Source: a virus
Taxonomy: Duplodnaviria; Heunggongvirae; Uroviricota; Caudoviricetes
Reading direction: 5' to 3' (one strand)
IMG/VR virus record: IMGVR_UViG_3300030332_001481
Coordinates: 67,486-131,485 of that record
Length of the DNA: 64,000 nucleotides
Positions 58,423-59,028 of this stretch are shown here, piece after piece. The notes under the pieces were generated by a model. That model did no database searches and was not told the DNA's origin. It saw only the letters and a program-made list of their open reading frames with translations. Numbering within the stretch: position 1 is the first letter of the stretch; each line of letters opens with the position of its first letter. Both the position numbers and the translations under genes were made by a program.

Positions 58423-59028
58423 ATGGAAAAGTACCCCAGCATTTCCAGGGATCCCCAGTACGGGGGTCCCTACTTGGTCTACGACAAGCTGGACGGTCAG
58501 AACATTCGTGCGGAGTGGAGCAAGAAGCGAGGCTTCTACAAGTTCGGCTCCCGCAAGGTGCTGGCTGGCGATGGCTTGCTAACGGTGGGCGACCGTGAGC
58601 TGATCACTATCTACGAGGGTGACATCGAGCGAATCTTCAAGAAGCTTCGTATCGACCGGGCCGTGTGTTTCTTTGAGCTGTTCGGCCCCAACAGTTTCGC
58701 GGGGATGCACAAGGACTTCGACCCGATGGAGGTAGCACTGTTGGACGTGTACATCCATAACCGCGGCATGATGGACCCCCGTGATTTCGAGAAGACTTTC
58801 CGTGGGAAGGTCCCCATGCCTAGTCTACTATGGCGAGGCAACTTCAACAAGGAAGACGCGCAGGCCGTCAGAGATCGGCAGGTGGAAGGAATGACTTTCG
58901 AGGGCGTGGTGGTGAAGGGGCCGCCTCCTCGTAAGGACTCTCTCCCGGTCATGTTCAAGGTCAAGAGCCAGGAATGGCTCGACAAGGTAGCCTCTATGTA
59001 CGGGGACAAAGCCGAGGAGCTGCTCTGA
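58423..59028 (+). CDS. minimal ATP-dependent polynucleotide ligase-like nucleotidyltransferase domain (RNA ligase-like)
   Basis: Motif I YDKLDGQNIR (KxDG), motif III-like FFELFG, motif IV EGVVVKG, motif V FKVKS; only 201 aa. Confidence 0.5.
   Translation: MEKYPSISRDPQYGGPYLVYDKLDGQNIRAEWSKKRGFYKFGSRKVLAGDGLLTVGDRELITIYEGDIERIFKKLRIDRAVCFFELFGPNSFAGMHKDFDPMEVALLDVYIHNRGMMDPRDFEKTFRGKVPMPSLLWRGNFNKEDAQAVRDRQVEGMTFEGVVVKGPPPRKDSLPVMFKVKSQEWLDKVASMYGDKAEELL

Follow-up and report, generated by a model that had tools for sequence, protein, structure and literature searches.

A protein of 201 amino acids (aa), encoded in a 64,000-nucleotide stretch of the phage record IMGVR_UViG_3300030332_001481 (Caudoviricetes; positions 67,486 to 131,485, hereafter the window), is probably an ATP-dependent RNA ligase cut down to its nucleotidyltransferase (NTase) core and used for RNA resealing in a huge-phage tRNA island. 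The window is part of a 388.5-kb contig from the Tara Oceans marine metagenome. The gene, a complete stand-alone RNA ligase-type NTase gene, occupied positions 58423-59028 on the + strand, stop codon included, and belonged to a family found almost only in giant phages. Its product is referred to below as the phage ligase.

The gene and its catalytic motifs

The open reading frame (ORF) began with ATG, ended with TGA and contained 201 codons of protein. Its third-position GC content was 0.77 in frame, compared to 0.59 and 0.36 out of frame, indicating that it is coding. The true start was fixed by a conserved N-terminal KYPSI segment (58429-58443, +; family consensus MKxYPSI, with M1, Y4 and P5 at least 90% conserved), which resembles the N-terminus of T4 Rnl2 (MFKKYSSL). 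Conservation of this end across the family also ruled out a missing N-terminal module.

All the motifs of the covalent nucleotidyltransferases were identified in order on the + strand, and their conservation was assessed in an alignment of 56 homologs. Motif I (K22-L-D-G-Q-N27; 58486-58503) included the invariant residues K22, D24 and G25, K22 being the predicted AMP-accepting lysine. Motif Ia (K40-F-G-S-R-K45; 58540-58557), where K40 and G42 were invariant and position 44 was either R or K, is predicted to contact the 3'-OH strand by analogy with its counterpart in T4 Rnl2, R55, which makes this contact. Motif III and its following loop (F83-F-E85-L-F-G-P-N-S-F-A-G94; 58669-58704), with the core FFELFG at aa 83-88, carried the invariant F84, E85, S91 and G94, while motif IIIa (A105-L-L-D108-V-Y110; 58735-58752) carried the invariant D108 and an L106 conserved in at least 90% of the sequences. 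Finally, E160, G161 and K165 were invariant in motif IV (F159-E160-G-V-V-V-K165-G; 58897-58920), as were K179, K181 and W185 in motif V and its flank (M177-F-K179-V-K181, then W185; 58951-58977). Two further residues, R29 and W32, were also invariant.

When all six frames of the window were screened for ORFs of 60 aa or longer (n = 324), only this one showed the ordered ligase motif pattern, so the motif set exceeds chance expectation. A preliminary description of the window had placed a 201-aa ORF at exactly these positions and strand, and had named the KxDG, EGxVxK and KxK motifs in canonical order, which correspond to K22-L-D-G25, E160-G-V-V-V-K165 and K179-V-K181. Beyond these three, motifs Ia, III and IIIa (KFGSRK, FFELFG, ALLDVY) were also present.

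Fold and class assignment

The AlphaFold2 model, built from the 56-sequence alignment, had a mean predicted local distance difference test (pLDDT) score of 93.1 and a predicted template modelling (pTM) score of 0.89, and comprised a single alpha/beta domain that leads into an amphipathic C-terminal helix (aa 183-200; 58966-59025, +; DSSP assignment H183-200 on the model). This helix was the sole element outside the NTase core, and the block-mean pLDDT of residues 181-201 was 97, 89 and 84. The preliminary description had made its assignment dependent on a ligase fold and a conserved motif I lysine, and had claimed that an OB or C-terminal domain is missing. The model had the fold, K22 was invariant in homologs, and the single NTase domain with its helix, sharing both ends with the homologs, bore out the domain-less architecture.

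In structure comparisons the model scored highest against NgrRnl (14.4), the N-domain of T4 Rnl2 (14.1), TbREL1 (13.5) and MthRnl (12.1), followed by ATP- and NAD-dependent DNA ligases (≤11.8) and capping enzymes (≤7.8). The Foldseek ranking agreed with this order (T4 Rnl2, E = 6e-9), and the top sequence and structure matches were all RNA ligases. At the profile level, residues 16-181 aligned with positions 2-171 of the 171-position Pfam model PF09414 (RNA_ligase; E = 8.6e-6). In the alignment, 45 of the 56 members matched this model at E ≤ 0.01 (best E = 4.4e-12), and many homologs carried a precomputed PF09414 match. The match to PHROG 548, annotated as 'RNA ligase' (E = 1.5e-11), covered profile positions 5-245 of 341, indicating that the C-terminal third of this profile is absent from the phage ligase. 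A clear family member in BFVD (A0A8S5L9G8; 204 aa, TM-score 0.82) is named 'RNA ligase domain-containing protein' in UniProt, showing that automatic annotation already recognises the domain.

Neither the phage ligase sequence nor the family profile retrieved anything meaningful from the PDB sequences, and hhalign of the profile against the single T4 Rnl2 sequence gave no match, T4 Rnl2 being too diverged for the profile or hhalign to find. It is thus the Pfam and PHROG profiles, together with structure, that tie the family to Rnl2 and Rnl5, and the family appears as a distinct, diverged branch. Scans with NCBIfam and PADLOC also gave no match for the phage ligase, which is thus neither a named PGAP family nor a known defence-system component.

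Motifs I, III, IIIa, IV and V in order on an NTase fold place the protein in the covalent nucleotidyltransferase superfamily, and its architecture departed from each RNA ligase class considered. Its closest known system is the N-terminal adenylyltransferase domain of T4 Rnl2 (PDB 1s68, 2hvq, 2hvr). The T4 Rnl2 sequence used for the spacings was checked against the T4 genome. Motifs I and III were separated by 63 residues in the phage ligase and 64 in T4 Rnl2, motifs III and IIIa by 23 and 21, and motifs IV and V by 19 and 21, respectively, while the IIIa-IV segment was about 32 residues shorter in the phage ligase, the sole spacing difference. The all-helical C-terminal domain of T4 Rnl2 (residues ~244-329) was absent, as the phage protein ended 20 residues past motif V. 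Members of the Rnl5 clade, NgrRnl from Naegleria gruberi and DraRnl from Deinococcus radiodurans, possess an N-terminal OB-like module of 126 aa needed for adenylylation and sealing (PMC1807946), whereas only 21 residues precede the motif I lysine, K22, in the phage ligase, leaving no such module.

The Rnl1 signature PF09511 did not match the phage ligase and matched weakly in a single one of the 56 members, and the Rnl1-type C-terminal tRNA-specificity domain was absent from the model. The N-terminal, dimerisation and C-terminal domains of Rnl3-type enzymes (MthRnl, PabRnl; ~380 aa) were not found either. TbREL1 of Trypanosoma brucei possesses its own C-terminal interaction domain and works in the editosome with KREPA2, whereas no conserved partner was found for the phage ligase. 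An OB domain is retained even in the smallest ATP-dependent DNA ligases (Chlorella virus ligase, Lig E type; PDB 2q2t, 4d05), whose substrate is DNA; unlike them, the phage ligase had neither a DNA_ligase_A_M (PF01068) nor an OB match at E ≤ 10, and no OB domain in its model. The most fitting description is that of a PF09414 superfamily member whose family makes up an NTase-only clade of its own. The architectural variant is new, the RNA ligase domain itself being recognisable by Pfam.

Family size and distribution

A word-indexed search recovered 760 homologs, the best 120 of which were all 191-243 aa long. An exhaustive hidden Markov model (HMM) search of 1.84 billion representatives yielded 854 clusters at E ≤ 1e-3 and 358 at E ≤ 1e-30, and the best 150 matches were nearly all 195-215 aa long. 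Among locus-encoded copies (n = 105), the longest possible ORF ranged from 196 to 261 aa except in a single copy, whose ORF read through into a downstream AAA+ ATPase gene (L053:6001-7806; 601 aa), probably through loss of the stop codon or faulty assembly and not as a real fusion. N-terminal 'extensions' among the search matches were considered as fusions and set aside, as they look like mis-called starts. One member only, P0129, had a C-terminal zinc-ribbon tail, and identical copies of the ligase occurred on at least 13 contigs.

In deposited phage genomes the gene was found in 20 of 50,697 records, all of at least 384 kb, comprising 15 Lak megaphages, four uncultured huge phages and Xanthomonas phage XacN1. 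Relatives were encoded on 118 IMG/VR stretches, from which 80 loci were used for the viral locus comparisons, and contigs of at least 200 kb carried 34 of these 80. The species genomes of GTDB contained 25 ligase loci, mostly on short contigs of metagenome-assembled genomes (MAGs). Four copies of ~200 aa (L097, L098, L099, L101) were chromosomal, on alphaproteobacterial contigs of 0.49-1.5 Mb, so the family is not strictly viral. Only one of the four is not labelled as MAG or uncultured (L098:5956-6606, Pelagibius sp. Alg239-R121), and there the gene was an isolated monocistron amid housekeeping genes, with no tRNA near.

The member encoded by XacN1, ORF354, is annotated as 'hypothetical protein'. 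Three Rnl2-family paralogs have been counted in XacN1 (Iyer et al. 2021, PMC7824862), of which ORF354 may be one; the genome paper of this phage is silent on ligases. No relevant description or assay was found in the literature on single-domain or minimal RNA ligases.

Association with tRNA genes

Proximity to tRNA genes is the strongest context signal for the family. Using ARAGORN, 26 tRNA genes were predicted in the window (0.41 per kb), forming two arrays (13377-17831, - strand; 29247-30956, + strand) and one solitary gene (63394-63469, + strand), so the whole window is part of a tRNA and translation island of a marine phage. Across the viral loci, 60 of 80 had at least one tRNA gene within 6 kb of the ligase, with 383 tRNA genes overall (0.40 per kb). 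The median distance from the ligase to the nearest tRNA gene was 754 nt, and this distance was at most 1 kb in 32 of the 80 loci.

The background was taken from one complete relative genome (LR745208.1; 485 kb), as a search for control loci with another window protein found no relatives. This genome contained 36 tRNA genes, with 17.6% of positions lying within 6 kb and 6.7% within 1 kb of a tRNA gene, and its own ligase, located inside a 60-kb tRNA island, had an array of five tRNA genes 2.5 kb away. The association of this ligase family with huge-phage tRNA islands had not previously been quantified.

Gene neighbours across loci

All-against-all clustering of the ORFs of 81 loci gave a largest neighbour cluster present in 21 loci, and two non-overlapping synteny groups had RNA-repair content. 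The first group (21 loci) comprised a 2H phosphoesterase, a His_Phos_1 phosphatase, an HNH gene and Cpn10, the 2H gene being near the ligase in 21 loci and the histidine phosphatase in 20. In the second group (13 loci), an Rnl1-type ligase (PF09511) was found ~1.6 kb downstream, mostly together with PTH2. Overall, PTH2 was near the ligase in 13 loci and additionally in L114 and L115, which encode the closest relatives of the phage ligase (62-64% identity) and also had HNH, EF-Tu and NADAR genes nearby. At the locus of a 53% relative (L004), a canonical NTase+OB DNA ligase was encoded separately, 4 kb from the minimal ligase, and genes for Ro60/TROVE and an AlkB-like oxygenase were also present.

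The genomes of jumbo phages average 18-22 tRNAs and carry an RNA-repair toolkit of Rnl1/Rnl2, PTH2, Thg1, 2H and PNK-HAD (Iyer et al. 2021, PMC7824862). The gene company of the ligase is this toolkit, and the association of tRNA genes with end-healing or rescue genes by which jumbo-phage RNA repair modules are recognised (PMC7824862) was observed here.

A Cys-rich multi-zinc-ribbon family, with a core like CNxCG...GGYDSYHL.D...Y.FS.CE.CL..LF...I.P., was encoded upstream of the ligase in several clades (L007:5585-6004, L010:5622-6023, L035:5426-6004 and 13 more loci). It had no informative Pfam match and was absent from the window.

Proposed function and alternative explanations

In the proposed mechanism, K22 would attack ATP to form a lysyl-AMP enzyme, the AMP would be handed to an RNA 5'-phosphate end, and attack of a 3'-OH on the activated end would create the phosphodiester. 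As one part of a huge-phage tRNA and translation-maintenance island, the phage ligase would most likely reseal breaks made in tRNA or structured RNA by host anticodon nucleases or other RNases, the RNA ends being healed first by other enzymes and then sealed by the ligase. A role in RNA or tRNA break sealing had already been considered plausible in the preliminary description, and the occurrence of the ligase with tRNA genes and RNA-repair genes strengthens that view. The theme of phage counter-defence by tRNA resealing is probably shared with the Rnl1-type T4 RnlA (PF09511). A specialist would expect this broad role, which makes the finding a moderately surprising one.

Since no OB or helical domain is appended and the family is unusually basic, the NTase surface itself would probably hold the nucleic acid. 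The median isoelectric point (pI) of the family was 8.7, with values above 8 in 49 of 56 members, compared to 6.0 for the acidic N-domain of T4 Rnl2. This high pI is a hint of direct nucleic-acid binding by the core.

Several observations weigh against a resealing RNA ligase of this kind. No neighbour was conserved in all of the 81 loci, no polynucleotide kinase (PNK) was found near the ligase copy in the window, and neither a PNK nor a 3'-phosphatase was identified among the window annotations. The four alphaproteobacterial copies were isolated among metabolic or housekeeping genes, neither tRNA nor repair genes being close by, and in XacN1, where tRNA arrays were seen in the first 50 kb, the ligase was ~190 kb distant from them. 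The nominal binomial p-values of the tRNA proximity (p ~ 1e-29 for 6 kb and p ~ 1e-17 for 1 kb) overstate the enrichment, given the relatedness of the loci and the use of only one genome as background. Concerning the class assignment, the PF09414 match scored 26.4 bits, just below the gathering cut-off of 27, and the structural margin between RNA and DNA ligases was small. The behaviour of truncated relatives is a further difficulty. Deletion of the C-terminal domain of T4 Rnl2 cripples step 2. The same deletion enhances step 3, and DraRnl without its N domain retains 8% of nick sealing and 4% of adenylylation while sealing pre-adenylylated nicks twice as well (PMC1807946). In characterised relatives, the isolated NTase domain is thus not a full ligase, and a natural domain-less ligase must compensate somehow.

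One tentative possibility is that the phage ligase compensates by itself, as a natural autonomous stand-alone adenylyltransferase in which the NTase domain would perform all three steps and a basic surface would replace the clamp. An undifferentiated stand-alone adenylyltransferase has been proposed as the ancestor of all modular ligases by Shuman and colleagues (PMC1807946), and the family could represent either an extant ancestral state or a secondary reduction. If autonomous, it would constitute a further architectural class of RNA ligase beyond the clades compared here, specialised for huge-phage tRNA islands. In a more speculative version, it would act on tRNA transcripts of the phage itself, in their maturation or repair, and not on host tRNAs. 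Rnl1, Rnl2, Rnl3 and Rnl5 are each defined by an extra domain on the common NTase core, so a family of ~850 clusters without such a domain implies either that the core suffices when adapted or that a partner is needed, and either answer bears on ligase evolution and on how the substrate is gripped.

A trans partner for the ligase is a minority possibility, and it is unlikely that the phage ligase is the catalytic subunit of a split ligase whose clamp is supplied in trans by the zinc-ribbon neighbour or by a host or phage protein encoded elsewhere. Such an arrangement has a precedent in TbREL1, which uses the OB fold of KREPA2. Also in its favour, the PDB contains a heterodimeric phage DNA ligase (9hu3), and the isolated DraRnl and T4 Rnl2 NTase domains are deficient in steps 1 and 2. 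The Cys-rich zinc-ribbon family was encoded upstream in 18 examined loci, 16 of them distinct (L004, L005 and L007 are the same phage), spanning several ligase clades (the 2H clade, L004/L007 and L010). Its gene overlapped or abutted the ligase start in most of these loci and lay 1.2-1.4 kb off in L058 and L080. At least two CxxC motifs were present in 12.8% of immediate same-strand neighbours compared to 5.6% of the background (Fisher p = 0.002), and P0129 carries its zinc ribbon as a C-terminal extension. In the window, the next gene encodes a 110-aa zinc-ribbon protein of the CxxC...CxxC type (59028-59360, +) whose ATG overlaps the ligase stop codon (TGATG), which couples the two; this ORF was called as a gene on the source contig and had a weak zinc-ribbon Pfam match only.

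However, the upstream zinc-ribbon family was absent from the window and from most loci, and the CxxC enrichment came mostly from one synteny clade and is hence not independent evidence. Zinc ribbons are also frequent among small phage proteins. No neighbour of the ligase in the window, including the 59028-59360 ORF, had a homolog in any locus examined, and this ORF is at most a candidate partner; the closest relatives (L114, L115) had unrelated neighbours, and the bacterial copies were monocistronic.

It is quite improbable that the phage ligase catalyses a partial reaction only, as an RNA 5'-adenylyltransferase, a deadenylase or a sealer of adenylylated RNA (App-RNA) acting downstream of, for example, an Rnl1-type ligase. 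Domain-deleted DraRnl and T4 Rnl2 act in this way (PMC1807946), and the full-length Rnl1-type ligase ~1.6 kb away in 13 loci would make a second complete ligase partly redundant. The motifs for steps 1-3 were nevertheless all invariant, including motif IV and K179 and K181 of motif V, and in most loci no further ligase occurred within 6 kb. A dedicated family of 854 clusters would also seem excessive for abortive App-RNA, which arises only rarely as a by-product.

A DNA nick-sealing or RNA-splinted DNA ligase for huge-phage replication or repair is very improbable. The small structural margin would allow it, but an OB domain and a PF01068 match were both missing, the best sequence and structure matches were all RNA ligases, and L004 already encodes a canonical NTase+OB DNA ligase 4 kb off, besides the minimal one. 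The association with tRNA arrays, PTH2, 2H and Rnl1 would also be left unexplained by a DNA role. Finally, a decayed or truncated Rnl2 remnant, or a non-catalytic nucleotide- or cap-binding protein keeping the fold, has a negligible chance of being correct given that length and both termini are conserved over 854 clusters, the catalytic residues are all invariant, the coding bias is strong and identical copies occur on at least 13 contigs.

The ligase family appears to be a marker gene of huge-phage tRNA and translation islands and hence a candidate participant in the conflict between tRNA-cleaving host defences and phage repair. With its size of 23 kDa, a single-domain RNA ligase might also be useful as a reagent, for example for the ligation of pre-adenylylated adapters.

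Neighbourhood in the window

The ligase gene was located within a long co-directional array of + strand genes. Promoter, terminator and Rfam scans of the 48-64 kb region gave no signal specific to it. A Thg1-like 3'-5' nucleotidyltransferase gene (50451-51167, +; PF04446, L001 2029-2745), 7 kb upstream in the same array, provides a tRNA 5'-end repair context and was followed by an HNH gene (51291-51749, +). Between these and the ligase were genes encoding a radical SAM protein of 471 aa (52699-54114, +), an MBL-fold hydrolase of 280 aa (54698-55540, +) and, two genes upstream of the ligase, an R2K-clade ATP-grasp protein (57276-58052, +; PF18299, E = 1.6e-7) for which the PHROG and PADLOC scans gave no match. 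The MBL-fold hydrolase showed a faint, sub-threshold likeness to the anti-Pycsar nuclease Apyc1 (E = 0.0025). The 113-aa ORF upstream and the 110-aa ORF downstream of the ligase were considered as carriers of the missing C-terminal or OB domain and rejected, as they had no Pfam or PHROG identity beyond the weak zinc ribbon; neither had a ligase-adjacent homolog in L004, L114, L115 or the other examined loci.

Genes for nucleotide-related enzymes were scattered along the same array on the + strand, namely dCMP deaminase (33997-34509), thymidylate synthase (44589-45431), Nudix (60304-60729) and DHFR (61028-61801), the last two being downstream of the ligase. A Band_7 protein was encoded at 31551-32468, and a 1161-aa ORF (36223-39726) had no Pfam match.

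The tRNA gene nearest to the ligase in the window was the solitary one, 4.4 kb downstream (63394-63469, +; Rfam tRNA, 56.8 bits), with the anticodon CUA, which makes it a candidate amber suppressor. ARAGORN labelled it 'Pyl'. TAG still closed 31 of the 99 non-overlapping ORFs of the window, giving no indication of TAG recoding in this region; the tRNA may serve late genes elsewhere. The gene 5' of the ligase closes with tandem in-frame stops, TAG and TGA (58409-58414), a possible safeguard in a genome with an amber-suppressor-like tRNA.

Within the - strand array, the tRNA-Trp gene (17606-17685) was atypical in the ARAGORN prediction (80 nt, anticodon at position 40) and may carry an insertion or have been mis-folded by the predictor. 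A TnpB / OrfB_IS605 (Cas12f-like) gene of 405 aa (15104-16324, -) lay between two blocks of this array, with an HNH endonuclease gene (14080-14607) nearby.
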